Origin: a virus
Taxonomy: Duplodnaviria > Caudoviricetes
Reading direction: 5' to 3' (one strand)
IMG/VR virus record: IMGVR_UViG_3300049019_000012
Location: 1 to 49,451 of that record
DNA: 49,451 bases
Below the pieces are notes generated by a model. That model made no database searches. It saw only the letters and a program-made list of their open reading frames with translations, and was not told the origin of the DNA. Positions 165 through 49,451 of this stretch are shown one piece after another (position 1 is the first letter of the stretch; each line of letters starts with the position of its first letter). A program made the translations under genes and the position numbers.

Positions 165-481
165 TCATGATTTCCTTTCGGTTTGTCGTCAAAAACAATG
201 CGGCGCATGTCCGCCAGGTGGCGTTCGGTAGCTGCTAGGCTGCCAGCGCTGCCGCTGCCTTCAGTCGGGCGCAGGCCGCAGTTCCACAGTTCATCCATCA
301 GCTGCTGGGCTGCGCGCATGTCGATGTTCAGGAACGGTTCGGTATGCGATCCGATGTCAGCCTGTTCCATGGTCGCAGGCTTGGCGACGCTGAACGTGTC
401 GCCGTTCTCGACGGCGAAGTGCAGCGCGATGCCAGCACGCCATGGCTGCGGATGGGCGTAGAATTTGCCGCCTCGCATCAC
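161..481 (-). CDS. Hypothetical phage protein
   Basis: ORF overlaps the stop of the ParB-like gene and the start of the next gene (start 481 GTG or 478 ATG). Confidence 0.7.
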   Translation of the reverse strand: MMRGGKFYAHPQPWRAGIALHFAVENGDTFSVAKPATMEQADIGSHTEPFLNIDMRAAQQLMDELWNCGLRPTEGSGSAGSLAATERHLADMRRIVFDDKPKGNHE

Positions 482-1395
482 GCACCGCCCGCCAGTTCAA
501 CCTGCGCCGCCTGGTTCGCCTTCTCGCGCAGCTTCTGTTCGGCCTTCTCGCGCAGTTCGGTGATGCTGCCGTGCTGGTTCATCAGTTCCCACACGATGGT
601 CGCGGGCAGCAGTACAGTGTCACCTTCCTTCGGCTCGTTCAGCAGGAACATGCGCGTTTCGGCGGGCAGCTTTGCGTGCAGAGTGTCCAGCGTCTGCACA
701 ACCGGCAGAACAGCCGCAGCCGGTGGCGTCCACGGCTTCAGCGCCTTGGCGGTGACTTTCTTGCCGCCGTTGTCTTGCTTGGCCTTCACCAGCTTGTCGG
801 CTGCCGCGTGGCCATGCGCACGCACCTGGTTGATGGCTTCCGTTGCCGCCACGCTGCCGTCCTTCACCAGCTGCTGCACCTGGTGCGGCGCGCTCGCCAG
901 AATCAGCATCTGGTCCACGTGCTGGCGGGTCTTGCCGACACGGCGGGCGATGTCGTCAGGCGTCAGGCCGTAGGCAGTCAAACGGCGGTAGCCTTCCGCG
1001 ATTTCCAGCGGACGTAACTTGCGGCCTTCGTTGCTGGTCATGATGCGGGCGGTGCGGTCCACATCGTTGCCAACGAACGGTTCGATGCGGATGTACTGGA
1101 TAGGATCGCCCGCCGCGATCAGTTCCTGGTAAGCCGTGAAGCGGCGGTGGCCGTCCACCAGGTCAACGCCTTGACCGTCAGCCGACAGCACGACTTCCAG
1201 CGCTGGCACTTGGCCGCCGCGCTTGATGTGCGCCTTCAGTGCGTCGATGTCTTCGCGGTAGTCGTCTGCGTTCACGTCGCGCAGATTGAAGCCGTCCACG
1301 ATGCGGATTGCGGACGGCACTGCTGCCATGCCGCTGTCGCCGCGCTTGACAATTTTGGCGTCGATCAGTGCGCGCCAGCTAAGTTTGATGCTCAT
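478..1395 (-). CDS. ParB/Spo0J-like protein (ParB N-terminal domain plus HTH)
   Basis: LVDGHRR motif, SNEGRKL segment, HTH-like LTPDDIARRVGKTRQHVDQML; GGAG RBS before ATG 1395. Confidence 0.8.
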   Translation of the reverse strand: MSIKLSWRALIDAKIVKRGDSGMAAVPSAIRIVDGFNLRDVNADDYREDIDALKAHIKRGGQVPALEVVLSADGQGVDLVDGHRRFTAYQELIAAGDPIQYIRIEPFVGNDVDRTARIMTSNEGRKLRPLEIAEGYRRLTAYGLTPDDIARRVGKTRQHVDQMLILASAPHQVQQLVKDGSVAATEAINQVRAHGHAAADKLVKAKQDNGGKKVTAKALKPWTPPAAAVLPVVQTLDTLHAKLPAETRMFLLNEPKEGDTVLLPATIVWELMNQHGSITELREKAEQKLREKANQAAQVELAGGA

Positions 1396-1696
1396 TTGTT
1401 TGCTCCATGTGAAAGTCTTTAAAATCGGCATCGCCTTCCATGCGTTGCGTGCCGTCCTTGCGATACCAGCAGTACTTACTTCCGATCCTGTGCGGCCACT
1501 CGCGGCGCGTCATGTGAACGTAGCCACTGCAGCTGCACGAAGTTTTTCGGGTGTTGCGTGTGTTCATCCAGCTGTCAATGCGCCACGACTTTGCGCTGCA
1601 CGAATTACATGCGGGTACGCGCAGGTATTCATCGGGCCTCATTGGAAATACGCGCCGCGCTTCGCACTTGCGGCAGCGGACGTGATAGCGCGCCAT
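1379..1696 (-). CDS. Cys-rich putative zinc-binding protein
   Basis: CRKC, CNSC, CSC...H...C motifs; in operon. Confidence 0.7.
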   Translation of the reverse strand: MARYHVRCRKCEARRVFPMRPDEYLRVPACNSCSAKSWRIDSWMNTRNTRKTSCSCSGYVHMTRREWPHRIGSKYCWYRKDGTQRMEGDADFKDFHMEQTNEHQT

Positions 1697-1698
1697 GC

Positions 1699-1863
1699 TT
1701 ACAGGCGAATCACGCGCTGCGCGTCTCGACGCTGCACCTGGTTCACTGGATGATGAGCATACTTATCGCCCAGCACGCGTTTCGCGATTTCAACGCGGCG
1801 GGCATTGCGTGCAGCCATTTCGGCGGCGGTTTCTTCGGTCATCTGTTTGCGAGTGTGCAGCAT
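1699..1863 (-). CDS. Small hypothetical protein (MLHTRKQ...)
   Basis: AGGGG RBS before ATG 1863; 3' part of track ORF 1699..2028. Confidence 0.6.
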   Translation of the reverse strand: MLHTRKQMTEETAAEMAARNARRVEIAKRVLGDKYAHHPVNQVQRRDAQRVIRL

Positions 1864-1912
1864 GGTGATCCCCTGAAGTGGATGCGCCCCATGCTGGCGG
1901 CGCTGGTCGGTA

Positions 1913-2431
1913 TTAGGCGGCCTTCTTGGCCTTGGACTTGTTTGCAGCGCCCTTCGGCCAGCCAGCCTGCGCAAAATCGCTGACCACGTTCGCAACCACT
2001 GGCAGAGTGCGGCAAGCGGCGGCGTCATCAGCTGGCAGGTACTTTTCGAATTCCGGAAGCATATCTACCAGCGCTTTGCGGGTCGTGCACGCCAGAGCGC
2101 AAGCGCGCAGCTTGCTTTCCAGCGCATTGCGCTTTTCGTCCTGAGAATCGTTTGCGCTATCCATGCGTTTGTACTCTTCAGCCGCCTTAGCGGATGGCGA
2201 GTAACCGTCTTTAGCGCACGGCACGCTCACGCTGCCGTAGCGGTACGCATAGTTCGTGTTCAAGAAATGGCGCAGACTTGCGTCGGAGTAGATCGCACGA
2301 ACCTTCAGCGGCAGCTGCGCCACTGCGTCGTCCTGGATCAGCTTGCGCATTTGTTCCTGGTAGTCGATTTCTGGAACGTCTTGCATGGCAGCGCGAACGA
2401 AGGCGTTGCGGATGGTATTGGTCAGGCGCAT
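1913..2431 (-). CDS. Nmad5-like (nucleotide-modification-associated domain 5) protein
   Basis: N-terminus MRLTNTIRNAFVRAAMQDVP and C-terminal TTRKALVDMLPEFEKYLP resemble this phage family. Confidence 0.65.
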   Translation of the reverse strand: MRLTNTIRNAFVRAAMQDVPEIDYQEQMRKLIQDDAVAQLPLKVRAIYSDASLRHFLNTNYAYRYGSVSVPCAKDGYSPSAKAAEEYKRMDSANDSQDEKRNALESKLRACALACTTRKALVDMLPEFEKYLPADDAAACRTLPVVANVVSDFAQAGWPKGAANKSKAKKAA

Positions 2432-2495
2432 AATTCTCTTTCAGTATTTGGGTTGCCCAGTGGCCGACTGGGCAGCGGTTGTGCTGCTGGGATTT

Positions 2496-2777
2496 TTAGT
2501 AGTAGCGAACGCGGGCGCGGGAGTTGGCAAGGCGGCTCAGCGCTTCTCGGGTGTTGCGTGCGTTGATGCTCTCGCTGATGCGCAGTCCAACAGCGCCCTT
2601 CGCGGCTTTGCGCGCCAGCTTGCTGCCGGCTGGGCGGGCTTTACCAGGGATGCGGCTACGAGTACGGCCAGCAGCTGCCATGGTCACAGGAATCTGCGGC
2701 GTAATCATCTGGTTAAAACGTGCTGCGAAGCCCATGCCGGAAGCGGCAGCGATCAGTGCTTTAGTAATCGATTTCAT
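2496..2777 (-). CDS. Basic hypothetical protein
   Basis: AGGA RBS; first gene after a candidate promoter. Confidence 0.65.
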   Translation of the reverse strand: MKSITKALIAAASGMGFAARFNQMITPQIPVTMAAAGRTRSRIPGKARPAGSKLARKAAKGAVGLRISESINARNTREALSRLANSRARVRYY

Positions 2778-2823
2778 AAATTCCTAAGTAGAAAAATTGC
2801 TGCATAACTCATGCAGTACCGCA

Positions 2824-2853
2824 ATTCTAACCCGGCCAAAAATATTTGCGCAA
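2824..2853 (-). promoter_or_regulatory. Candidate sigma70 promoter
   Basis: TTGCGC-N18-TAGAAT on minus strand in AT-rich intergenic DNA. Confidence 0.4.
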
Positions 2854-2866
2854 GTAAATCAGCAAA

Positions 2867-4282
2867 TTATTTGCGACGACGCCCGCCCATGACTTTGCCA
2901 GCCCACACAATCGGGTTCTTGTAACCGCGCTTGCGGCCCAGGTCAGCGAGTGCGCCCAGGTCTTTGCATGCGGCTTGCTCTGCCAGTAGGCGTGCACGTG
3001 TTGCGCGCTTGTCGTCGTCGGTCGCTTCCTGCAGTTCGCCTTCGCCCACTTCCAGCGGCTTCGCTTCGGCCTTCAGCAGCTTGCCGCAGCCTGGGCAGCA
3101 TTCTGGCAGCGGCCTGCGTATCTGCATGAAACACTGTTCGCACGTCACTGGCGGCGGTGGCGCGTTGTCGTTCGCGGCTTTCTTGCCCATGGCGCGGCCC
3201 AGCCAGTGTTCGGACCAGTCGCGTTCATCATCGGGGAAGCCGTGCCGGTTGCTGTTGCCCGCGTGGTCCAGCAGCTTGGCAATGTCTCCTGGACGCAACG
3301 CACGCCCCCAGCGCTGCATCACCTGGGACAGCGACGCGGACGGCGCGGCGTCGATCACGCACTTAATCTGCACGTCGCGCTGCGCCACTGCCGCGATGTC
3401 GAAGCCTTCAGCGAACAGCCCTTTATTCCACAGCACCTTAATGCGCCGGTCAGCATACGCCTGGATGACGCGGCGGCGTTCGGACTTGTCGGTGTTGCCG
3501 TCCAGATGCGCGGATGGAATGCCCGCCTGGTTGAACTGGTCGGCCATGTACTGGCTGAACGCCAGCGACGGTGCGAAGCCTACGGACAGTTCGTCGTTCG
3601 CATGCTTGCGCCAGTGCGTGATGATGTCGCCCAGCAGCTTCGGCTTATCCACCTTGGCTTCGACTTCGCCCGCAATAAAATCGCCCATGCGCTTGCCGAC
3701 GCCGGTCACGTCCATGCCACCGTTCGGAACCCATATGCGGTAGTTCGATAGAAATCCGTTTTCCATCAGCCAGGCGGGCGTCGGACCAGGAACCATTTCA
3801 TCGAAATGGGCATCTAGTCCGCTGCCATCCAGCCGCCATGGCGTGGCAGACAGCCCGATAATCAGCGTGCCGTTGTCGTGCAGCCACTTGATGACCGCAG
3901 CCCATCCTGCAGCGCCGCTGTGGTGGCATTCATCCACGATTGCGATGCGTGGCGCTTTGAGTTTCTGCAGGCGGCCTTTCAGCGTGTCGATGCTGCAGAT
4001 TTGAACCGGCATCCGCGTGTCCATCGGCATGCCAGCTGCAATAAAACTGTGGTGAATTCGGAACTTATTAAATGTCTTGGACGTTCCATCCAGTAATTCG
4101 ACGCGATGGCAAATAAACCATGTGTCTGCGCCTTTGGCTGCAGCCTGGCCCGCCATGTAAGACGCCATCACCGTTTTGCCGCTGCCGGTCGGAGACTGTA
4201 GCAGCACACGGCGATTGCGTTTCAGTGCAGCGCGCGTTCGGCTTACCAGGTCTTCCTGGTCTTCGCGTAGTTGTATCTGCAT
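2867..4282 (-). CDS. SF2 DEAD/DEAH-like helicase with C-terminal zinc ribbon
   Basis: SPTGSGKT, DECHH, SAT, QRWGRALR, CEQC/CPGC; likely start MQIQLRE at 4282. Confidence 0.92.
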   Translation of the reverse strand: MQIQLREDQEDLVSRTRAALKRNRRVLLQSPTGSGKTVMASYMAGQAAAKGADTWFICHRVELLDGTSKTFNKFRIHHSFIAAGMPMDTRMPVQICSIDTLKGRLQKLKAPRIAIVDECHHSGAAGWAAVIKWLHDNGTLIIGLSATPWRLDGSGLDAHFDEMVPGPTPAWLMENGFLSNYRIWVPNGGMDVTGVGKRMGDFIAGEVEAKVDKPKLLGDIITHWRKHANDELSVGFAPSLAFSQYMADQFNQAGIPSAHLDGNTDKSERRRVIQAYADRRIKVLWNKGLFAEGFDIAAVAQRDVQIKCVIDAAPSASLSQVMQRWGRALRPGDIAKLLDHAGNSNRHGFPDDERDWSEHWLGRAMGKKAANDNAPPPPVTCEQCFMQIRRPLPECCPGCGKLLKAEAKPLEVGEGELQEATDDDKRATRARLLAEQAACKDLGALADLGRKRGYKNPIVWAGKVMGGRRRK

Positions 4283-4307
4283 AATTCTGGCTGTTAGGAA
4301 ATCACCA

Positions 4308-4338
4308 ATTATAACGCGCAACAAATGCGCGATGGCAA
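4308..4338 (-). promoter_or_regulatory. Candidate helicase promoter with palindromic spacer
   Basis: TTGCCA-N19-TATAAT; spacer contains CGCGCA-N5-TGCGCG (4315-4331). Confidence 0.45.
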
Positions 4339-4366
4339 TAACTACAGCACCAGGGGAGAATGTGAA

Positions 4367-4795
4367 ATGCCCCATGCGGGATACGAGATCGCAAAGCTGT
4401 TGCTGGCGATGACGAAGACAGCGGCGGCGGTCTTCCTGCACTCAGAAAACCACGCATCAGAAGCGGACGCGGTGATGCTGTGCGCAGCGGTGTACATCGG
4501 CCAGTGCGAGAAACGCCCGATGACGGCGGGCAAGCTATCGGCGTACATCGGCATGCCGCGTCCTACTGTGCTGCGCAAACTCGGCGAACTGGAACAACGC
4601 GGCCTGGTCAGCGCGAACAAGAAGAAGCAATGGTGCATCGCTGACAATTCGCCGAAAGTAGCAGCGCGAATTGCTGCGGCGATTGATGCGTTATTGCCAC
4701 TTATTCACAATGCTGAAGCGATACTGTCCAGAATGGACACTCGCAGGATTGCGTCGAAACGACGACAAGAATTAGACAGAAATCAATCGCGGTGA
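4367..4795 (+). CDS. Winged-HTH transcriptional regulator (possible repressor)
   Basis: PMTAGKLSAYIGMPRPTVLRKLGELEQRGLV wHTH pattern; GGGGAG RBS; divergent from helicase. Confidence 0.75.
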   Translation: MPHAGYEIAKLLLAMTKTAAAVFLHSENHASEADAVMLCAAVYIGQCEKRPMTAGKLSAYIGMPRPTVLRKLGELEQRGLVSANKKKQWCIADNSPKVAARIAAAIDALLPLIHNAEAILSRMDTRRIASKRRQELDRNQSR

Positions 4796-4923
4796 TTTGC
4801 AAGTAAGTAACAGTGCAACGAAGCACGCATCATTCACGCGCGATAATTTTGCATCGATAAACATAACCACACGCAACAGTTGTGGTATCATGCAATCTTT
4901 CCAGTCATCATTAAGGGGCAGAA

Positions 4924-6072
4924 GTGAATCCGGGAATCTACGACGACATTCCGAACGCCGACTATCACGGCGGCGAAGGCATCAGCAATTCAGGCTTGGC
5001 GATCATTCGACGCAGTCCGCTGCACTACCGTGCGCGCCAGCTGGCAGCAAACGACAACGAACCCACGACGGCGCAGGCCATCGGCACGGCGTTCCATGCG
5101 CTGCTGCTGGAACCGGAATTGTTTTACAAGGAATACTGCCTGGGCATTCGCCAGTCGGATTATCCGGATGCCATCGACAGCCGCGACCAGCTGGTGGCGA
5201 TGGTCACGAAGCTGAACGAAGGCCGCCTGCCGAAGCTGTCCACCACTGGCACGAAGGACGAACTGGTGGCGCGCATCGTGGAAGCGCTGCCGACTGAAAG
5301 CCGCACGCCGGAAGTGTTGGCAGGCTTCCAGGAAATGAAGGGCGCGGAACTGAAAGCCACCATCGAAGAACTGAACGCGCTGCGTACTGGCCTGCTGTCC
5401 ACCACGGGCACGATGGAACAGCTGGCCGTGCTGCTGAAGACCGAAGGCGTGGCCGTCACGCTCTGGAAGGATTTGAAAGCCGAATGGATGGCGAACAACG
5501 GCCACCGCAACGTGCTGACGCCTGAAGTGTGGGACCAGCTGATGAACATGCGCGACGCTGCTATGGCGCATCCTATCGCCCGCGCGCTGCTGACCGGCAA
5601 GCCTGGCAAGGCTGAACGCTCGGTGTATTGGATCGATGAAGCCACTGGCGAACTATGCCGCTGCCGTCCTGACTTCTGGCGCGAAGACGATATCGTGGTG
5701 GACCTGAAGACCACGGAAGACGCCAGCCCGGAAGGCTTCGGCAAATCGATTGCGAACTGGTCCTACGACACACAGGACGCGTTCTACCGCGACGGCTGCG
5801 CTGCTGTCGGCAAGCCGCTGCGTGCGTTCGTGTTCCTCGCCGTCGAAAAGTCCGCCCGCGTGGTCGAAGGTCAGCCGCTTGGCGTTGCTGTGTACCAGTT
5901 GGACGAAGCAGGCCGCGACCTGGGTCGTGCGAAGTATCGCGCAGACCTGGCCACCTATGCCCAGTGCAAGGCGACGAACAAGTGGCCCTGCTACAGCGAC
6001 AAGCTGGAAACGATCAGCCTGCCGCAGTGGCACATGAACCGCAATGCGCACCTTGTCGAAGGTGTTGCATGA
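4924..6072 (+). CDS. RecE/exonuclease VIII-like PD-(D/E)XK nuclease
   Basis: YH...ISNSGL, GTAFHALLLEPE, CRCRPD, VDLKTT, YDTQDAFY motifs. Confidence 0.88.
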   Translation: MNPGIYDDIPNADYHGGEGISNSGLAIIRRSPLHYRARQLAANDNEPTTAQAIGTAFHALLLEPELFYKEYCLGIRQSDYPDAIDSRDQLVAMVTKLNEGRLPKLSTTGTKDELVARIVEALPTESRTPEVLAGFQEMKGAELKATIEELNALRTGLLSTTGTMEQLAVLLKTEGVAVTLWKDLKAEWMANNGHRNVLTPEVWDQLMNMRDAAMAHPIARALLTGKPGKAERSVYWIDEATGELCRCRPDFWREDDIVVDLKTTEDASPEGFGKSIANWSYDTQDAFYRDGCAAVGKPLRAFVFLAVEKSARVVEGQPLGVAVYQLDEAGRDLGRAKYRADLATYAQCKATNKWPCYSDKLETISLPQWHMNRNAHLVEGVA

Positions 6073-7151: not shown

Positions 7152-7352
7152 ATGACCGCAGCAGCACAGAAATATTTGACCAGCAAGGAAGCCGCAGAAC
7201 TGTTGCGCACGAAGGTGGGCACGCTCGCGAACAAGCGTGTGAAGGGCGAAGGCCCGCCCTTCGTGAAGTTCGGTTCAAAAGTCCTGTACGAAGTGGAAGC
7301 ACTGACTGCATGGCTGAAGGCGGCTAACGACAACCAATCAAGCGACAAATGA
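7152..7352 (+). CDS. Excisionase-like HTH protein
   Basis: YLTSKEAAELL...TLANKR..GEGPPFVKFGSKVLY pattern of HTH_17/Xis proteins. Confidence 0.8.
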   Translation: MTAAAQKYLTSKEAAELLRTKVGTLANKRVKGEGPPFVKFGSKVLYEVEALTAWLKAANDNQSSDK

Positions 7353-8659: not shown

Positions 8660-8700
8660 CAACATTTGTTTCTTTGACGCACGTTGCTAACTCACAACAC

Positions 8701-8722
8701 AAACCCGCTTCGGCGGGTTTTT
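8701..8722 (+). terminator. Intrinsic terminator
   Basis: AAACCCGC-TTCG-GCGGGTTTTT after ssb. Confidence 0.8.
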
Positions 8723-8726
8723 ACGA

Positions 8727-8924
8727 ATGGGAAGACAAATGAAACAGTTTTACTGGGAAGTGAAGCGGCTGAATAAAAAGACGGCCAGGATGGTATTGCT
8801 CTGGCGCGGCGTGCATGCATGGGTTCGATTCCCTGCCAGGCATATCGATGACAGGCGCTACCTAGCGCTATGCCTGCGTGATGTACGTTACGCCGCGAAG
8901 CTTCAATTGCGCGCTGTCCGCTGA
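8727..8924 (+). CDS. Small basic hypothetical protein
   Basis: ORF between two terminators; start could be 8739. Confidence 0.45.
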   Translation: MGRQMKQFYWEVKRLNKKTARMVLLWRGVHAWVRFPARHIDDRRYLALCLRDVRYAAKLQLRAVR

Positions 8925-8928
8925 AACG

Positions 8929-8955
8929 CAAAACCCGCCAGTGGCGGGTTTTTTT
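8929..8955. terminator. Bidirectional intrinsic terminator
   Basis: AAAACCCGCCAGTGGCGGGTTTTTTT between convergent units. Confidence 0.8.
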
Positions 8956-8959
8956 GTCG

Positions 8960-9770
8960 TCGCTATCTCCCCGCGTTGCCGGGATTTGGCCGCCGCATTT
9001 CTGCATCGGCTCAGGCTCGTTTGCGCCCAGTCCTATCTGGAAAGTGGCGCGGTTGGCTGTGGTGCAGGAATCGAACCTGCTGAAGTCGCTGGGGCCTTGC
9101 TCGTTCTACCCGAATCGCCTTGCGCGTCCGCTTGGCGCTAACCACACGGCTGGCGACTTCCATGCTTGTCTGGCTACTGGACCGGCATTATCCGGTTCGC
9201 TGCGCACCAGGGCAGAAATCGCCATGCGTGTGGCGACTGGTTGAGCCAGTCAGGCTTGTGGTGGGCCGGGTCGCAACCGGCTAAGTTTCCAGCATGCTGG
9301 GCTAGTCCTTTCGGGATGCACACCACACGACTGCTGACTGGACTATCGGATACAATCGCCACTGGTTCGCATCAGTGAACTGCCCTCGGCACGATTGCTT
9401 GCGCTCCGCTGCGCTCATCCAATCAGCATGCGTGTGGTGCCTGTCTTTCCAGGCTGTCATGCCTGCCCACACCAGCTGGGCCACTGCCTTACGGCTTGCG
9501 CCGCGTCACGGATTCGAACCGCGTCCTTTACCAAATCTCGGCAAGCGAGCTGGAATCGAACCAGCATGCTCTGTCGGGCTTTCGCCCATGTTCTAGCCGG
9601 TTACGTAATCCGGCACTGGCTTTTACAGTCGTTCGCGCCCCTGCCTGTCTATTCCAGGCTGTCTTCACATGCCGCCGAAGCGGCCCGCAGTGCGACAGGC
9701 AGGGATAAGAGGCCGCTACATTTCCCCTGCATGCTCAAGGATCGTTTCCGAACGGTGGCGAGCAAGAAAC
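8960..9770 (-). ncRNA. Putative structured non-coding RNA array with tRNA-like modules
   Basis: No convincing ORF; T-arm-like hairpins at 9549-9565, 9507-9523, 9265-9281 and 9064-9080; repeated long stems; extended -10 TGgCATAAT near 9774-9782. Confidence 0.6.
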
Positions 9771-9782
9771 CAAATTATGCCA

Positions 9783-11030
9783 TCACGCAGCAATCTTGTG
9801 TTGTTGTTTCTTCACAACGTTGCGTTCAAACCACTTTTCCCACTTCTTCATGGCTTCGCGCATCTGCGGCAAATAGTCGGCGTGGTCGTAATGCTTGCCG
9901 CCAGTGTCGCCGCGTGCGTGTTGCTGGATCAAGTCGCGCGTGAACCTGTCCACGCCTGCGCCGTCGCCCATGCGTGATTTCCATGTGCGGCGCAAGTCGC
10001 GGGCCTGGAAGGGCGCGCAGCAGTCCAGCGATGCGATGTGATGCGACACGGCCAGGAAGCCCATGCGGTCGGCCTTCGATCCTGTGCGCGCCGGGAACAG
10101 CGGGCCGTCGCCGTGCCAACGCTTCAGGCGTTTGAAAATCTCGTTCGCCTGGGCGGGCAGGGGGATGAAGTGCGGTTTCTTCCGGCCCTTCGTCTTGTGT
10201 GCTGGAATGGTCCACAGCGCGCGCTTCGTATCGACTTCGCAGCCGTCCACCTTGATGGTTTCCTGCACACGCTGGCCGCACAGCATCACCAGGCGCGCGC
10301 AGTCGCCCGATCCTTCATCCGTCAGCGATTCCCACACGGCGGCCATTTCTTCGGGCGACAGGTTGCGGCTGCGTTCCTTGCTCGCGCGCTTGTCCTTCGG
10401 CACGGCCATCACAGGGTTCACCAGAATGCCCCAGTCGTATGTCACGTCCTGGGTGTAGTCGTTCGTGGACTTCATCGCCCAGCCGAACGCTGACGACATG
10501 TAGGTGCGCTGGATGTCTGCCGTGCGCAGCGCGCCACGCTTGGCTGCTGCCGTCAGCGGCACGCGAATGTCCGATGGCGTCACGTCGCCCGCCAGCTTGC
10601 TGCGGCCCAGCTGGTCGGCTGCGTTGAACTTGCCCGTCAGCAGAACGTTTTCGACGTGGCCAGCTGAACCAGCGTCGCGTGCCTTCAGGTGCGCAACGTA
10701 TTTCTTGAACAGGTTTTCGACAGTCGGCACTTCGCCGATGAATTCAATTGCGGCTTTCGGCTTCGATGACGACTTGACCAGCGGCCTGATGTCGTCGCCG
10801 AACTTCGTCCTGGCGTCGGCAAGGGTCATATCCGGGTATCGGCCCAGCTGCTTTTTGCCGCGCTCGCCTGCCTTCTTCCAGTGTGCAAACCAGATGGCAT
10901 TCACGCCCGCGCTGGTCCTGCGGATGCGCAGCCGCAGACTTCCTTCGCCCTTGTTGCGGTTGCCGTCGTTAAGCACAGTTTCGCCCTGGCAGTCGCGGAT
11001 TGCGGCATCAATTTGGGTTTTCGTCAGCAC
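9783..11030 (-). CDS. int: Tyrosine integrase with N-terminal arm-binding domain
   Basis: LGRYPDMTLADAR arm domain; catalytic R (GQRVQE), K (KTK), RDLRR, H (QQHAR), Y (KHY); next to att sites. Confidence 0.93.
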   Translation of the reverse strand: MLTKTQIDAAIRDCQGETVLNDGNRNKGEGSLRLRIRRTSAGVNAIWFAHWKKAGERGKKQLGRYPDMTLADARTKFGDDIRPLVKSSSKPKAAIEFIGEVPTVENLFKKYVAHLKARDAGSAGHVENVLLTGKFNAADQLGRSKLAGDVTPSDIRVPLTAAAKRGALRTADIQRTYMSSAFGWAMKSTNDYTQDVTYDWGILVNPVMAVPKDKRASKERSRNLSPEEMAAVWESLTDEGSGDCARLVMLCGQRVQETIKVDGCEVDTKRALWTIPAHKTKGRKKPHFIPLPAQANEIFKRLKRWHGDGPLFPARTGSKADRMGFLAVSHHIASLDCCAPFQARDLRRTWKSRMGDGAGVDRFTRDLIQQHARGDTGGKHYDHADYLPQMREAMKKWEKWFERNVVKKQQHKIAA

Positions 11031-11056
11031 GCCTTTGCCCCTCGTTTATTGGTTTC

Positions 11057-11336
11057 CAGGGTGCCCTACAGGGTGCCCCAGGCGGTCAAGTGACCGGCCT
11101 TTGAAGCATTTACAGTTTTGCCGCTGCGGGTCAAATTCGCGTTGTGGATCAACGGGATGCGATTGCTTCAGGTGATGCGCAATTATACCCGATTATAGGG
11201 CGCAAGCAGCCTTCCAAGCTGAGGACGGCGGTTCGATTCCGCTCACCCGCTCCAGTAAATGATTTGCAGTGACAATTAGTTATTGGAAGTCTTCAGCTTC
11301 GAAGCTGAATACGTCAGGGTGCCCTCTAGGGTGCAC
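11057..11336 (+). other. attP-1: arm repeats flanking the 3' half of tRNA-Gly(TCC)
   Basis: CAGGGTGCCC at 11057, 11069 and 11315, TAGGGTGCAC at 11327; core 11207-11254 CAGCCTTCCAAGCTGA...GTTCGATTCC...CACCCGCTCCA. Confidence 0.85.
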
Positions 11337-11412
11337 TACAACCGTAGTCACTGCGTCACAGGCACTTCTTGAATTTTTGCGATGCACTTTGTGGGAACGT
11401 TTTCCACAAATT

Positions 11413-11438
11413 AAAAAGCCGCCTCAGTGGGCGGCTTT
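11413..11438 (-). terminator. Intrinsic terminator after the methyltransferase
   Basis: AAAGCCGCC/GGCGGCTTT hairpin with T-run on minus strand. Confidence 0.7.
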
Positions 11439-11458
11439 CTGTTGACAATGGAAACGAA

Positions 11459-12298
11459 TCAAGCCGCGAATTCGGCGGAAGGCGTGTTGTCGTTCGCTGG
11501 CGTAGGAAGTGCGAGCGGTATGCGCCGCTTCGCAATCTCCATGTAGTCGTCGCTAATTTCGATCCCTACGAACTGGCGTCCATGTGCAACGGCCATCTTG
11601 CCGGTGGTGCCGCTGCCCATGAACGGGTCCAGCACAAGTTCGCCAGGATTTGACCAGCTTAGGATGTGGTCACGCGCCAGGGCTTCGGGAAAGATCGCTG
11701 GATGTTCATACGCCAACCTGTCTGACGCCGACGCGCCGCCGCTGACGATATATGTCCAAACGTTCTGCTTCTTCACTACTTCCTTGATCGGCACTTCCTT
11801 TTTGGTGAACTCGCCTTCTGTGTTGCGATTTACGGCGCGGAACCGAGTAGTGCGCTTGTCGTTCCACTTGTTGCGGCGCGGCACTTCGATGGCGTTCAGC
11901 CTAGGTGCTCCCTTGCTGAACACGAACATGAATTCAAACGCCTGGTAATAGCGCGTCGCGCCGCCGACTGGTGCGGGATTGTCTTTGTGATAAATCATGG
12001 TGTCGTGCAGGTTGAAGCCACACTGCATGAAGAACAGCGCCTGCTTGAACGATGTGCCTGTTTCGCTGCCGTTCACGGTTGCATCACCGACAACCCATAC
12101 GACAACGCCGCCGTGTTTCGTGACGCGGTACAGTTCGCGTGCGATGGTTTCAAAGTCGAAGTGGAAGCCGTTGTATGTGCGTAGGTTGTCGTATGGCGGG
12201 CTGGTCACGGTCAGGTCGATGCTGTCGCTTTCCAGAGTTTGAAGAACCTGCGCGCTGTCTCCCAGGTGAAGTTTGAAATTGTCGTTCGCGGGCGTCAT
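11459..12298 (-). CDS. Beta-class N4-cytosine/N6-adenine DNA methyltransferase (orphan)
   Basis: TSPPY before HPAIFP and VLDPFMGSGTT; likely start MTPANDN at 12298. Confidence 0.92.
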   Translation of the reverse strand: MTPANDNFKLHLGDSAQVLQTLESDSIDLTVTSPPYDNLRTYNGFHFDFETIARELYRVTKHGGVVVWVVGDATVNGSETGTSFKQALFFMQCGFNLHDTMIYHKDNPAPVGGATRYYQAFEFMFVFSKGAPRLNAIEVPRRNKWNDKRTTRFRAVNRNTEGEFTKKEVPIKEVVKKQNVWTYIVSGGASASDRLAYEHPAIFPEALARDHILSWSNPGELVLDPFMGSGTTGKMAVAHGRQFVGIEISDDYMEIAKRRIPLALPTPANDNTPSAEFAA

Positions 12299-12422
12299 TT
12301 CGTTTCCAAGTCGAGTTAAAGAAACTCGATTCTCGCACACAACGATTCGTTGTGGAATGTTATTTGTACATCTTTTGCGTTCACGCAACTTCACGCGGCA
12401 TCATGCATGCTGAAATTGATTC

Positions 12423-12687
12423 CAGGGTGCCCCTCAGGGTGCCCTACGAGGGAAAGTGACCCATCATTGATGCGTAAGGGTTTTTCTCGATTTTCGACGT
12501 TTTCTGCTGTTGAGCCAACGGGTTAGGATGGTCGCCCGTGAGTTGCAATGATGTAGCGTGACTACTTCAATTCAGCCTTCCAAGCTGAATACGAGGGTTC
12601 GATTCCCTTCACCCGCTCCAATAAAATCAATGACTTACAGCGCAAATTGCTTGATGCTTAAAACTCGGGGTGCCCCACAGGGTGCCC
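12423..12687 (+). other. attP-2: arm repeats flanking the 3' half of tRNA-Gly(TCC), with an IHF site
   Basis: CAGGGTGCCC at 12423, 12435 and 12678, CGGGGTGCCC at 12666; core 12573-12620; AATCAATGACTTA (12625-12637) matches IHF consensus WATCAANNNNTTR. Confidence 0.87.
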
Positions 12688-12731
12688 CGCCAGGAAAGTA
12701 ATCACGTCGCGTCGTCCGCAATAATAATGTG

Positions 12732-13763
12732 TCACTCCGCTTCATCCTCGACAGCAGCGCCGCCTTCGGTCGGCGTTTCCGCTTCCAGGTCGCACACGTA
12801 GCCGCCTGACTTGTCCAGCCGGTGCGCGACGCGCGTCACGATCCATTCGCCGTCAACGCCATCACGGAATCCGATCATGGTCAGCGGGCTTTCGGCTGCT
12901 GCGTCTGGTCGTCCAGGCATCGTCAGTGACAGCGTGGATTTCTTGCGGTCGCGCTTCGCCAGTTCGGCCTTCGCGGCGGCCAGCGCCATGTCCTGCGTCG
13001 GGAAATAGCGTTTCATCCTGGTGACGGGTTCGCCGCTGCCCACCTTCACTTCGTGGCGCTTGGCCTGCTTCACCTTGTGGTAATAGGCCACGACGGTGCC
13101 GGAACTCTCGCGCGCGGTTTCGGTGACACGGAAGCGCGAAACGTCGTCGTTCGACGTGATCGACAAGCTGGCCAGCGCCTGGCCGCCTACAGACTTCGAT
13201 TCGCCGCGCTTGGCCAGCACCAGCTTCCCGTTCGCAGGCTTCACGATGGCGTCGTAGTTCTTCCCGATGCGCACCAGCATGTTCAAGTCGCTTTCGTCGG
13301 ACTGGTCGATGTGCGGCAGCGTGATTGATTTCAGCGACGCGGCCACGGCTGGTTCCATGCCGTGTTCCTTCGCGATCTTCGAAACCATGTCGCCCAGCTT
13401 CGTGTTCGACGGCCAGCTGCGTGTCTTCTGGCTCTGCAGGTTCGCTTTGCCCTTCGGCGTCTTGTCGAAGATAGCGCCGCGTGCGCGGATCACCATTTGG
13501 CTTGGCCAGCCGCTGTATTCAATCTCGTCCACCACGAACATGCCCATGGGCTGCGCTTCGCCGTCGTAGCCAAGCGACACTTGCAGTTCCGCGCCCTTCG
13601 GCGGTCGCTGTATCGGCTCGCCGCTGTCGTCCAGCACGATTTCCAGCATGTCGGACGTGATGCCGGTTTCGTCCGTCAGGTTCATGGAAATGAAGCGCGA
13701 AGCAATGGCTTCCGTGATGTCGGAATCGTTCGCCACGACTTTGAACGTAGGCATCAATCCCAT
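12732..13763 (-). CDS. P2 gpD-like baseplate hub/late control protein
   Basis: SDMLEIVLDD, IDQSDESDLNMLVR motifs; synteny after gpX. Confidence 0.85.
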   Translation of the reverse strand: MGLMPTFKVVANDSDITEAIASRFISMNLTDETGITSDMLEIVLDDSGEPIQRPPKGAELQVSLGYDGEAQPMGMFVVDEIEYSGWPSQMVIRARGAIFDKTPKGKANLQSQKTRSWPSNTKLGDMVSKIAKEHGMEPAVAASLKSITLPHIDQSDESDLNMLVRIGKNYDAIVKPANGKLVLAKRGESKSVGGQALASLSITSNDDVSRFRVTETARESSGTVVAYYHKVKQAKRHEVKVGSGEPVTRMKRYFPTQDMALAAAKAELAKRDRKKSTLSLTMPGRPDAAAESPLTMIGFRDGVDGEWIVTRVAHRLDKSGGYVCDLEAETPTEGGAAVEDEAE

Positions 13764-13963
13764 AGCTTCAGCCCAGCCTTGACGGTTGGCGCTTCCAGCG
13801 TCGGCAGTTCGATGTTCAGGCCAGGCGGCAGACCAGGACCGTGTTCGGCCAGGCCAGGGTTTGCGGCCAACACCTGTTCGACCGTGCGATTGTCCTGCGA
13901 GCCGTAGAACTTCCAGGCGATGTAATCGACGGTTTCGCCCGCCCGCGTTGTGTAGGTAGCCAT
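13754..13963 (-). CDS. P2 gpX-like tail protein
   Basis: YTTRAGETVDYIAWKFYG...VLAANPGLA. Confidence 0.88.
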   Translation of the reverse strand: MATYTTRAGETVDYIAWKFYGSQDNRTVEQVLAANPGLAEHGPGLPPGLNIELPTLEAPTVKAGLKLWD

Positions 13964-14847
13964 CAGCCGATCTTCTTCAGTACGGATTGCGCGCTGGTGC
14001 GGACGCTCACGGCCAGCACGTTCACGCGGTTGATATCGATCATCGCATTGCGCACTGCGCTTGCCGCCGCCTGGTCAGCGATGTTCGCCAGCTTCAGCAC
14101 GCCAGACGCAGCGCCAGCTGCTCGCGACACTTCAGCACCGACGTGCACCAGGCTGTTCATGGCGCTTGGAATGCTCGCAATCGAATTCACGTTTCCGAGC
14201 ATGCGCGCCGCGTCGCTGCCAGCGTTCTGCAGGCGCTTGGCCGTGTTCAGGCCATTGCGTACAGCCGCATTGATGCTGGACGCCTGCGCGCCGATTGCGC
14301 CCGCCATGCCGGCGATTGTGGATACGGCACTGGTCAGGCTTGACACAAGGCTGGTTGTGCCTTTGGCGGCAGATGAAGCCGCCTGTGTCGCGCTCGACAG
14401 CGTGCTGGGAACTGGAATGGCGCTGGTAATCACGGCGATTGCGCCGCCGAAGTCCTGGCCGTCGTCCTGGTAGCGGCGCAGGCTTAATGTGAATTCCTGT
14501 TTCAGCGCGACGCCCTGCGGCCCGAAGATGGTCCCGCGTTCTTCGACTTCTTCGATTACCCACTGGCCCAGCATGTTGCCGCGCCCGTCGATCAACGTTT
14601 GCGGCTCCAGCTGTTCTGCCAGGCTGCGCAGGTCGTTCAGCTGCTCGGTGCCGCTGAAGAATTCTGGATAGACCACGCCAGGCAGCGAAATCGTGTCCGT
14701 GCCGTAGCCGGTAGCCTGCAGCGCATCGTCCTTGCCGAAGCGCTCATTGCTCGCCCATTTGTATGCAGTCCTGCGCTGGATTTCCTGGTAGGCGGCAGTG
14801 GTGATACCAAAGCCGAAGGAACCCAGGCGCATCATGATGTCGCTCAT
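13963..14847 (-). CDS. P2 gpU-like tail protein with long Ala/Ser-rich C-terminal extension
   Basis: MMRLGSFGF...ISLPGVVYP...GQWVI...EFTLSLRRY, then ~165 extra residues. Confidence 0.8.
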   Translation of the reverse strand: MSDIMMRLGSFGFGITTAAYQEIQRRTAYKWASNERFGKDDALQATGYGTDTISLPGVVYPEFFSGTEQLNDLRSLAEQLEPQTLIDGRGNMLGQWVIEEVEERGTIFGPQGVALKQEFTLSLRRYQDDGQDFGGAIAVITSAIPVPSTLSSATQAASSAAKGTTSLVSSLTSAVSTIAGMAGAIGAQASSINAAVRNGLNTAKRLQNAGSDAARMLGNVNSIASIPSAMNSLVHVGAEVSRAAGAASGVLKLANIADQAAASAVRNAMIDINRVNVLAVSVRTSAQSVLKKIG

Positions 14848-14850
14848 GGT

Positions 14851-16947
14851 TTAATGGTCCGTAAGTGATCCACGCTGCTGCACAGCGGCGTCGCGCTTCA
14901 TCATGTCGGCGATACGTCGCGCCAGCTGCTCTGTCGATTCGCCAGGCTGCTGCGTGATGTTGAATTCGTTGTTGTTCGTGACTGGTGCAGCACCAGCAGC
15001 GCCAGCGCCAGCGCCTCGCAGTGCAGGCAGCTGCCCGTTCGAACGCAGGTATTCCGTTTCCGCCGCAATGCGCTTTGCCTGCGCTTCGTTTGCCATGTTC
15101 GACAAGCCGATGAAGCCGCCCACGCCTTCGATGCCGCGCGCCGTGCCGGATTCGGCCTTTTGCCACCAGTTCATCTTCGACCAGTTTGTATCGTCCTGCT
15201 TCTGGTCGATGGCCTTGCCGCCCACGCCGAACTTGCCAGCGGCATAGTCGGCGGCGTTCGCCACGGCCAGCAGCCCAATGGCCACCTTAGCCATTCTGGC
15301 CAGCGCGCCGCCCGTCGTGGTCGCGGCGACGCCCTGCGCCGTTATGGCGGTCGTCTGCGCGGCGATGGCGGTAGTAGATGCGACAGCTGCAGCCGCCGTG
15401 CGCAGCTGGATTGCAGCGTACAGGCTCATGCCGCCAGCCGCTACGGTGATAACCGGCCCCAGCACAACCAGCGCAGCGCCCAGGCCAGTGATGCCGACAG
15501 CGGCAACCTTTACCAGCGTGCCGTGCTTCTCTGCGAACTCGTTGAAAGTCTTCAGCGCGTCCGCGCCTTTTTCAAGCGCGGCGGTGTACAGCGGCAGGAT
15601 TTCGTTGCCCATGCGCAGCTTGGCATCAGCCAGCTTAGCTTCGGCTTCCAGTTCTTTGCCGCTGGCGCTGTTCTTGCCTTCCTTGTCCAGCTGGTCGATG
15701 TTCTGCGCGCCCTTGTTGCGAGCCGATGCGCGGTGGATGTTTTCGCGCTGGCGATACATTTCAGCCAGGAACGAACCGCCTACGCTGTTCGACACAATCA
15801 TGCCGATGGTGTCGATTACCTGCTTTTCGTCGGTGATGCCCTTTTTGGCCAACTGCGGTAGCAAAACCTTTTCCATCCATTCGAACGGATTTGCGCGGAA
15901 CAGGTCGGACCCAAGCAGCGCGCCTGGCTCCATGCTCGATACCTGGCCCGCCTTGTCGTGCTTTACTTTGGTTTTGTCGCCGATCAGGCCGAAGCGCTCC
16001 AGGTTCAGCACGGAACGCTTTTTGGAAACGCCCTGGTACAGCGACTTGTACAGCGAATTCAGGCCGGTGCCTGCGCGGTCACCGCCCATTTCCTGCACCA
16101 GGTGCTCGAACGTGTAGAACAGCGCTTCGCTGTCCATGCTCTTGCCTGCCAGGCCGCCAGTGGCCAGCATGTGCCGCCACTCGGTCGCGCTGACGCGGCC
16201 ACCAGTGGCGCTGATGACTTGCTGGATTATGTTCGCCTGCTTGCTGAATTCCGCTTCGGATTTCAGGCCGCCGCGTGTCTCGATCACTTTCAGCATATCC
16301 ATGAACTGCTGGCTGTTCTGCTCGCCGCGCTCGTTGCCGAATACCGCCTTGTTCGCGAACTTCATTTTCGCCATCAGCGGCGCGACCATTTCGGCGTGGT
16401 GCAGGTCGGCAAACACGCTCAGGCCGTCGCGCATCAGTTCCAGGTTTTCCAGCTGGCTGGTGCCGAACGTCTTCATGTCCTTGGAAAACTTGTACGCCTG
16501 TTCGTTGGTCGCCGCGCCCATGCCCAGCGCGGCAACGCGCGCCTGTTCGGTTTGGTAGTGCTTCGCTTCCTTGACGCCTGGCACAGCGGATGCGATCAGC
16601 GCGCCACCCGCGACGGTTACGCCGACTCCCGCATTGCGCACCGTGCTTGCTCGCCCGTTGATGCGGGCGCTTTTGGCTTCCGCGTCAGCCAGTCGCTTCT
16701 GTGCGGCGCGCAGCTGGTCAACGGTCTTGATGGTGTCGGCGTACTTCTGGCGCAGGCCGTCCACGTTCTTGCCCATCTTGCCGAACGTGTTGATGCTGTC
16801 GCCCAGCAGGCGCTGGCGCTTGTCCAGGTCGCGAAGGGTATTGCCCAGGCCGCGCATCATCGACGTGGTGGAGCCGACAGCAGCACGCAGTGTGCTGCTG
16901 ACGGTCCCGCCGATGGTGATCGTAGTGTTTAAACGCTTATTTGCCAT
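14851..16947 (-). CDS. Tape measure protein
   Basis: Long Ala/Gly-rich helical protein with hydrophobic segment, after tail chaperones. Confidence 0.85.
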   Translation of the reverse strand: MANKRLNTTITIGGTVSSTLRAAVGSTTSMMRGLGNTLRDLDKRQRLLGDSINTFGKMGKNVDGLRQKYADTIKTVDQLRAAQKRLADAEAKSARINGRASTVRNAGVGVTVAGGALIASAVPGVKEAKHYQTEQARVAALGMGAATNEQAYKFSKDMKTFGTSQLENLELMRDGLSVFADLHHAEMVAPLMAKMKFANKAVFGNERGEQNSQQFMDMLKVIETRGGLKSEAEFSKQANIIQQVISATGGRVSATEWRHMLATGGLAGKSMDSEALFYTFEHLVQEMGGDRAGTGLNSLYKSLYQGVSKKRSVLNLERFGLIGDKTKVKHDKAGQVSSMEPGALLGSDLFRANPFEWMEKVLLPQLAKKGITDEKQVIDTIGMIVSNSVGGSFLAEMYRQRENIHRASARNKGAQNIDQLDKEGKNSASGKELEAEAKLADAKLRMGNEILPLYTAALEKGADALKTFNEFAEKHGTLVKVAAVGITGLGAALVVLGPVITVAAGGMSLYAAIQLRTAAAAVASTTAIAAQTTAITAQGVAATTTGGALARMAKVAIGLLAVANAADYAAGKFGVGGKAIDQKQDDTNWSKMNWWQKAESGTARGIEGVGGFIGLSNMANEAQAKRIAAETEYLRSNGQLPALRGAGAGAAGAAPVTNNNEFNITQQPGESTEQLARRIADMMKRDAAVQQRGSLTDH

Positions 16948-48979: not shown

Positions 48980-49451
48980 GCCGCCACCACAATCGGTTCT
49001 TCGGCCAGGCCGCGCCACACAAACCGGCTTTCATCGTCGTGCGTCGATTTGATGCCTGCGCAGTCGTTCTTTGCATCCTGCGGGTCGTCGTCGAAATAGA
49101 TGCACGACCAGTATTCGCCATTCCACCAGCGCTTATCTGAACGCTTTGCGCAGAAGCCACCGTTGTAGGATGAATTCCACTCGCCCACAGCAGGCGGCGG
49201 CCCGCTCTGCCAGTCCGTCAGCGGAATAGCATCATTGATCTGCTGGGCGACTTCCGCGAACGACATGCAGCGCACCACGCCAGAACCTGCTGGGCCGTCG
49301 CAATTGACCAGGTACAGTTCGCCGGTCGGGTTGATGTAGCCGCGCGGGTCGAACTCATCCACGATGCTGTCCAGCCCGAAGTGCTTACGAATTCGTTCAG
49401 CGTAGCGCGTCTTCCCGCAGCCTTGCGGCCCGTACACGATGGCGGATTTAT
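48976..49451 (-). CDS. P-loop-containing protein spanning the circular junction (true start ATG at 168)
   Basis: AGGA RBS then MNKSAIVYGPQGCGKT from position 168; continues through the terminal repeat; ~159 aa. Confidence 0.75.
   Translation of the reverse strand, partial: KSAIVYGPQGCGKTRYAERIRKHFGLDSIVDEFDPRGYINPTGELYLVNCDGPAGSGVVRCMSFAEVAQQINDAIPLTDWQSGPPPAVGEWNSSYNGGFCAKRSDKRWWNGEYWSCIYFDDDPQDAKNDCAGIKSTHDDESRFVWRGLAEEPIVVAA
49288..49451. repeat. Terminal direct repeat, right copy
   Basis: Matches 1-164 with one mismatch. Confidence 0.95.

Follow-up and report, generated by a model that had tools for sequence, protein, structure and literature searches.

A 1366-bp methyltransferase unit appears to split the attP of a tailed phage into two hybrid attachment sites

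Results

A split attachment site beside the integrase gene

The DNA analyzed here (the window) is a 49,451-nt stretch assigned to the Caudoviricetes (IMG/VR record IMGVR_UViG_3300049019_000012, positions 1 to 49,451). Two attP-type sites lie in tandem next to its tyrosine integrase gene with a DNA methyltransferase gene between them. Comparison with related phages indicates that these are not two native attP sites and that a single ancestral attP was divided at the anticodon arm by a 1366-bp unit. The sites are probably hybrids that arose by accretion and co-excision. In this reading, a piece of 1366 bp without an integrase gene, likely left over from a related prophage, was taken into a single attP, and the integrase likely made the crossover in the anticodon loop of tRNA-Gly.

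The window looks like a near-complete phage genome, based on a 164-nt overlap between its two ends. The genome size is about 49.3 kb, some 5 kb above its kin Burkholderia phage Mica and Ralstonia phage phiRSP. The genome and the genes outside the attachment region referred to below are as follows.

1 to 49,451, phage genome stretch; ends 1-164 and 49288-49451 overlap over 164 nt with 1 mismatch
478-1431, minus strand, ParB-like gene, present in relatives too
7152..7352, plus strand, candidate excisionase or HTH regulator (phrog_66, E 6.4e-7)
9783..11030, minus strand, tyrosine integrase, 415 aa, full length, with an arm-binding domain (PF13356 above cut-off; PF00589 and PF22022 weak)
12732..13763, minus strand, baseplate hub (gpD) gene (PF05954)

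The integrase is 83.5% identical to the Mica integrase and 76.5% identical to that of phiRSP. Residues R254, K279, R347, H371, and Y381 are invariant across 13 homologues and are presumably catalytic, as in this family generally. The gpD gene directly follows attP in most close relatives, and positions 12573-14974 are 89.6% identical to relatives L010/L021. The phage also encodes a PD-(D/E)XK nuclease, an AAA protein, and an SSB. The ParB-like gene may hint at a plasmid-like state instead of integration. Mica is temperate by prediction only (PMC7883832).

Downstream of the integrase, about 1.1 kb (8690-9780) has no clear gene. Hairpin motifs like the T-loop of a tRNA occur there at four places, near 9067, 9510, and 9552 on the integrase strand and near 8822 on the opposite strand. 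Neither ARAGORN nor Rfam calls a tRNA in this segment. The motifs occur at the equivalent place in 4 of 10 relatives checked, and Mica has an annotated pseudo-tRNA there.

Layout of the two attachment sites

11059..11206, plus strand, left arm 1, native to the backbone; arm repeat pair 11059-11078
11207..11254, plus strand, core 1, tRNA-Gly(TCC) from the anticodon arm to CCA; its 3' part is from the inserted unit
11255..11340, plus strand, right arm 1, foreign and worn; arm pair 11317-11336, core-to-arm distance 110, no IHF-like box
12425..12572, plus strand, left arm 2, foreign; arm pair 12425-12444
12573..12620, plus strand, core 2, the usual tRNA-Gly(TCC) 3' half of the backbone
12621..12687, plus strand, right arm 2, native; exact IHF-like box 12625-12637, arm pair 12668-12687, core-to-arm distance 95

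A sequence-only reading of the window had reported two 48-nt tRNA-Gly(TCC) 3' halves that share the anticodon arm and the acceptor strand and have pairable T-stems, and this description was confirmed. The cores are 87.5% identical, and their first 16 nt and the acceptor strand are identical. The anticodon hairpin CAGC-CTTCCAA-GCTG is present in both, the T-stem of each can pair on inspection, and each contains a 7-nt overlap between inverted repeats that matches a tRNA. The 5' tRNA half is absent at both cores; ARAGORN called 0 genes, and Rfam returned a partial tRNA match at core 2 only. The core 2 region is 98% identical to an alphaproteobacterial record and close to a Burkholderia tRNA-Gly. 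No sigma-70 promoter match was found within 10950-12800.

The arm repeats described in the same reading on both sides of each core were also recovered. The pair GGGTGC(C/A)C-N4-GGGTGC(C/A)C starts at 11059, 11317, 12425, and 12668, and these are the only 4 matches in the whole window with up to 1 mismatch, where 0.01 is expected. The exact 1366-nt offset holds, free of gaps, for the left arms and the cores, but not for the right arms, which are offset by 1351; right arms 1 and 2 differ by a 5-nt gap and a 19-nt insertion.

Right arm 1 contains a near-perfect palindromic insert at 11286-11313 (hairpin z -2.4) that resembles core 2 and has a 6-nt spacer. A third point of crossover was considered here, but the palindrome's right half matches a conserved right-arm motif in the alignment, and the spacer is 6 nt.

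Each site combines arms of different origin

The arms and cores were compared with 12 single-attP relatives that have the same tRNA-Gly core (10 contigs, phiRSP, and L081). Left arm 1 is 90.8% identical to L019 and 80.4% identical to L021, and right arm 2 is 91.4% identical to L021. Left arm 2 reaches at most 62% identity to any of the 12 (39-58% ungapped), and right arm 1 has 48-63% identity. The core 2 sequence is identical in 8/12 of these relatives and that of core 1 in 0/12; a pattern search of the IMG/VR viral contigs for the core 1 variant matched only two other assemblies of the same phage. In a breakpoint map against L021 and L019, identity to L021 extends to core 1 from the left and restarts at core 2 on the right. 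Thus, the closest relatives have an attP that corresponds to the outer arms and core 2 of the phage. Core 1 and the inner arms are foreign and in permuted order. Based on the arm identities and the L021 breakpoints, the ancestral attP was left arm 1, core 2, and right arm 2. The insert is core 1, right arm 1, the methyltransferase, and left arm 2, joined to the backbone in the 16 shared bases at the anticodon loop. In the insert the right arm precedes the left arm, which is the order of an integrated element. The suggestion that a 1366-bp methyltransferase unit had entered at attP is therefore borne out by the arm identities and the breakpoint map.

Relatives that target tRNA-Arg point to where the integrase family cuts. 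In 9/9 of those checked, only GC-CTTCTAA-GC is left between the arms, so crossover in the anticodon loop, as the earlier reading had supposed, is likely for this family. Anticodon-centered tRNA targeting is described as a common class (PMC4383910). In L003, L005, L068-L071, and other tRNA-Arg relatives, the attP has just an 11-nt anticodon-loop core between the arms and a tRNA-Arg gene lies outside the right arm, an att layout that resembles tRNA-dependent lysogeny.

Wear of the foreign arms

Conserved columns were defined as those that are the same in at least 11/12 relatives; for this comparison L020 was dropped as a duplicate of the L018 left arm and L148 was added. Left arm 1 retains 44/45 of the conserved columns and left arm 2 retains 33/45, a value below 11/12 of the leave-one-out values. 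Right arm 2 keeps 9/9 and 13/13 conserved columns, and right arm 1 keeps 3-5 of 9 and 10/13. Left arm 2 lacks the TTAT/TTAG motif 14 nt ahead of the core. An IHF-like box just right of the core is exact at site 2 and present in 12/13 relatives, and no such box was found at site 1 within 1 mismatch; the consensus used is that of E. coli IHF.

The distance from the first arm repeat to the core is equal in all 12 single-attP relatives. Site 2 has spacings of 148 (left arm to core) and 95 (core to right arm). The core-to-right-arm distance is 84, 95, 106, or 107 in the 12 relatives, which differ in steps of about one helical turn, and 110 at site 1. Selection on both sites had been read from the exact offset; the fixed arm-to-core spacing is inherited in the family, so the offset is not evidence of selection, and the foreign arms are worn. 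The end branches of the foreign arms in trees are 0.55 (right arm 1) and 0.43 (the other foreign arm), compared with medians of 0.13-0.14, and these long branches may reflect an unsampled donor lineage rather than decay. The two sites are attP-type sites of the adjacent tyrosine integrase, as had been proposed, but it is doubtful that they are complete, as each pairs one native arm with one foreign, worn arm. If the phage still integrates, site 2 is more likely than site 1 to be in use because the IHF-like box and normal spacing are kept there.

The inserted unit and its methyltransferase

11207..12572, plus strand, inserted unit, 1366 bp: core 1, right arm 1, terminator, methyltransferase, left arm 2
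11415..11439, strand not assigned, terminator-like hairpin behind the methyltransferase (z -4.9 on the minus strand)
11459..12298, minus strand, predicted orphan N4/N6 DNA methyltransferase, 279 aa (PF01555, E 5.6e-44; PADLOC oMTase, E 5.5e-86)

The GC content of the unit is 0.53 compared with 0.60 for the genome. The methyltransferase is its only gene, and the unit has neither an integrase nor transfer genes of its own. The SPPY motif (residues 34-37) precedes the SAM-binding motif DPFMGSGTT near the C terminus and no nuclease gene lies alongside, consistent with a predicted beta-class N4/N6 orphan enzyme. Its nearest relative is P0002 (86%). None of 38 other viral methyltransferase loci (38-58% identity) has arm pairs or this integrase. 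The hairpin at 11415..11439 is 88.6% identical over 35 nt to L002, phiRSP has a similar hairpin behind its right arm, and a simple terminator scan did not report it.

A peptide motif, ANDN, occurs nine times in the six frames of the window, often near gene ends (5047, 7323, and 7487 on the plus strand; 3175, 11497, 12289, 20124, 41065, and 46627 on the minus strand). It is found at both ends of the methyltransferase, as in other genes of the same phage.

The duplication is present in other contigs

Two other IMG/VR contigs are identical to the window over both sites (7000/7000 and 4098/4098 nt). Logan contigs were compared over both cores in four runs, which are possibly the source samples of the window. 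In 2/4, one contig covers 8500-12602 with no difference at depths of 57 and 103, and in the other 2/4 a single contig spans site 1 to core 2. These contigs run unbranched from the integrase via site 1 and the methyltransferase into core 2 and break inside core 2 (12593-12602). Run X6, which is not flagged as a possible source, matches without differences at 11106-11490 and 12078-12598, including the join between left arm 2 and core 2. X6 contig depth on part of the unit is 19.9 compared with 5.3, values that are unusable as copy number. Runs X16, X18, and X23 (low share) gave short fragments only. A joint lacking the methyltransferase was found in none of 8/8 runs, as judged from contigs, which lose rare forms, with four of the runs compared over both cores.

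These data show that the duplication is real. Misassembly, named earlier as what would refute the duplication, would have fused the attL and attR ends of a prophage. The break of the Logan contigs inside core 2, with no bridge from core 2 to right arm 2, fits such an error. The identical IMG/VR contigs and the agreement of X6 contradict it, phage genes rather than a 5' tRNA half and host flank adjoin both cores, and the overlap of the genome ends is located elsewhere. An artefact is thus largely refuted and extremely improbable.

Recurrence in the integrase family

A family survey of 162 loci contained 85 distinct integrases. For 79 of them the upstream DNA extends for 1700 nt or more, and in 66 of the 79 a tRNA 3' half could be detected. 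Two halves were flagged at 5/66 loci. The double cores of L194, L198, and L200 were false matches in coding DNA, which left 2/66 real cases (this phage and L129) and a single half at 64/66. L129 (G002), a complete phage of 38.8 kb, carries two tRNA-Lys halves at a spacing of 1264 nt, with three small genes between them (locus ~290-1810). Compared with the single-attP locus L136, whose integrase is 91% identical, the outer arms of L129 are 80% and 79% identical and the inner arms 60% and 54%. Judged by these identities, L129 is an independent repeat of the split-attP signature at tRNA-Lys with different cargo.

The donor of the unit

Left arm 2 is sister to the left arm of L148 (71% identity, support 100/99). 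L148 (NZ_CP095258.1), which is 26.5 kb long and deposited as a circular plasmid of Klebsiella pneumoniae, corresponds to the late-gene half and attP of a Mica-like phage; integrase and replication genes are not annotated in it, and a non-integrase gene adjoins its left arm. Right arm 1 does not cluster with the L148 right arm in the tree, so the unit may be of chimeric origin.

In the kin phages L090 and L098, ~4 kb of small-gene cargo lies between integrase and attP (locus ~800-5000). The cargo begins, immediately to the left of the left arm, with a methyltransferase gene or, once a small gene has been passed, with a queuine-tRNA-ribosyltransferase-like gene. These lead genes are candidates for DNA modification and end in ANDN like the methyltransferase of the phage. 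Arm-like repeat pairs lie beside the integrase and at two internal places. The L090 methyltransferase is only 26% identical to that of the phage, which makes the layout a parallel and not the source.

A search of 185,579 GTDB species genomes (one per species) with the left arm plus core pattern returned 1 match, due to chance; it lies within coding sequence that does not resemble the window. The same pattern in metagenome contigs gave 1 match, to a single-attP kin phage. Neither a chromosomal copy of the unit nor an integrated prophage of the clade was found in these genome and metagenome scans. The right-arm pattern matched 14 stretches in viral contigs with no prophage edge among them, and the sole new locus was a chance match. 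HeidiAbel att and integrase DNA gave 2 tRNA-Arg matches only against 5,426 E. coli genomes, and an att was not found at the Variovorax phage locus.

Discussion

The order of parts in the window suggests a history for the two sites. It would start in a host that carried, in order, tRNA-Gly, core 1, a right arm, the methyltransferase, a left arm, and a tRNA fragment, which would be a prophage cut down to its two att ends and one gene. The phage would integrate in tandem at the restored tRNA beside this remnant, and excision at the outermost site would carry the remnant off, which is small enough for packaging. The chromosomal stage is the part that we infer; the order of the parts is that found in the window. 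If two whole kin phages had integrated in tandem and a deletion had followed, the product would be identical, and the two routes are indistinguishable here. Either way, the two mismatched sites are likely not a purpose-built switch. In this history the unit is now retained stably, possibly because the predicted methyltransferase shields the phage DNA from host restriction.

Three other explanations have to be weighed against capture of a prophage remnant. The unit could be a live cassette that the integrase deletes as a 1366-bp circle, with site 1 serving as a bare attB-like core for the attP at site 2. Alternatively, the unit could stay behind in the host tRNA locus when the phage excises. 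In either case methylation would toggle in the phage population. Such an on/off switch had been proposed from the sequence and is possible in principle; none of the four arm pairs is disrupted, nor is the 16-bp segment that the cores share, the integrase is full length, and alternative excision from tandems is documented (PMC13651849, PMC9934374). It is nonetheless unlikely. The four runs compared over both cores, possibly the source of the window, show no unit-skipping joint in contigs, from which rare forms are lost; site 1 is spanned by single contigs without a branch; the unit is present in both other IMG/VR assemblies; and the inner arms lack conserved motifs. The earlier reading also offered a choice between tRNA-Gly alleles or hosts by one integrase with two maintained attP sites. 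The T-stems can pair and the acceptor strands are intact at both sites, but the bases that decide attB (the anticodon arm, 16 nt) are identical in the two cores, as is the acceptor strand. Host choice is therefore implausible, and the T-arms vary freely, with 6 core variants among the 12 single-attP relatives. The single tRNA half at 64/66 family loci and the worn arm at each site also argue against dual targeting, which we consider very unlikely.

The unit could also have been donated by a kin phage during co-infection. Recombination would then have occurred in the short shared core sequences independently of the integrase, with deletion of the rest of the donor and no lysogeny involved. One study describes temperate behavior as unobserved in Iiscvirinae and relatives and calls their lifestyle enigmatic (PMC11990801). 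The genome scan found no integrated copy of the clade, and the nuclease, AAA protein, and SSB of the phage could promote recombination. Against this route, both joins fall within the 16-bp segment at the anticodon loop, the crossover point of the family; L129 shows the same placement; and the same study states that related prophages do exist in bacterial genomes (PMC11990801). We give integrase-independent transfer a low probability and favor site-specific capture of a prophage remnant.

The mechanism of such capture is already known, and its setting in a free phage genome is unusual. ICEs and IMEs undergo site-specific accretion with CIMEs, integrase-less remnants that keep attL and attR, lie in tandem with the incoming element across a chimeric attP-like junction, and can be excised jointly (PMC5704250). 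The phage is similar in its remnant with both att ends, but its composite is a free, apparently complete tailed-phage genome rather than a conjugative element, the remnant is 1.4 kb, and the chromosomal form was not found in scans. The M. abscessus prophiT36-2 tandem prophages at one tRNA attB share the hybrid internal junction and the possibility of alternative excisions; neither of those partners is reduced, and the two together are described as too large for packaging (PMC9934374), whereas the partner in the phage is small enough to ride along. Phage-ICE tandems likewise place two elements at one attB with a hybrid junction and allow alternative excisions (PMC13651849).

The attP of anticodon-centered (site A) heterobivalent integrases has the features seen here, namely a 3' tRNA half, a 7-nt loop in inverted repeats, paired arm repeats, and an IHF-like box (PMC4383910); the phage differs in having two cores, each with one native and one foreign arm. 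Mica, phiRSP, and the Iiscvirinae-related myophages share an integrase 76-84% identical, the int-attP-gpD order, the arm repeat, and the tRNA-Gly core, but they have a single attP and lack the methyltransferase. An extra att site in a phage genome is also known from E. coli prophage-borne attB sites, which are host-derived and used by other phages (PMC8112680), unlike the extra site here, whose arm repeats are those of the integrase family to which the phage's own enzyme belongs. A report of a phage with two tandem attP sites, or with an attP split by a captured relic, was not found in the literature searched, whose coverage excludes most subscription journals.

It is conceivable, although we think it improbable, that attP serves this integrase family as a slot for repeated capture, in which small att-bounded cassettes, often with DNA-modification genes, are carried in the virion and dropped at a host tRNA or deleted, an integron-like reversible exchange of anti-restriction genes. 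If so, the phage and L129 would be fresh captures, and L090 and L098, in which the 4-kb cargo lies between a vestigial arm pair and attP, would be later stages.

The window would provide a clean sequence record of phage gene gain by precise att-site recombination (cis-mobilization), a route known chiefly from conjugative elements and from tandems in chromosomes. Because capture parts the native attP arms, it may be one way in which phages of this group lose efficient integration. Recombination could involve site 1, site 2, or the native site once it is re-formed, so the phage would offer a small, directly testable system.
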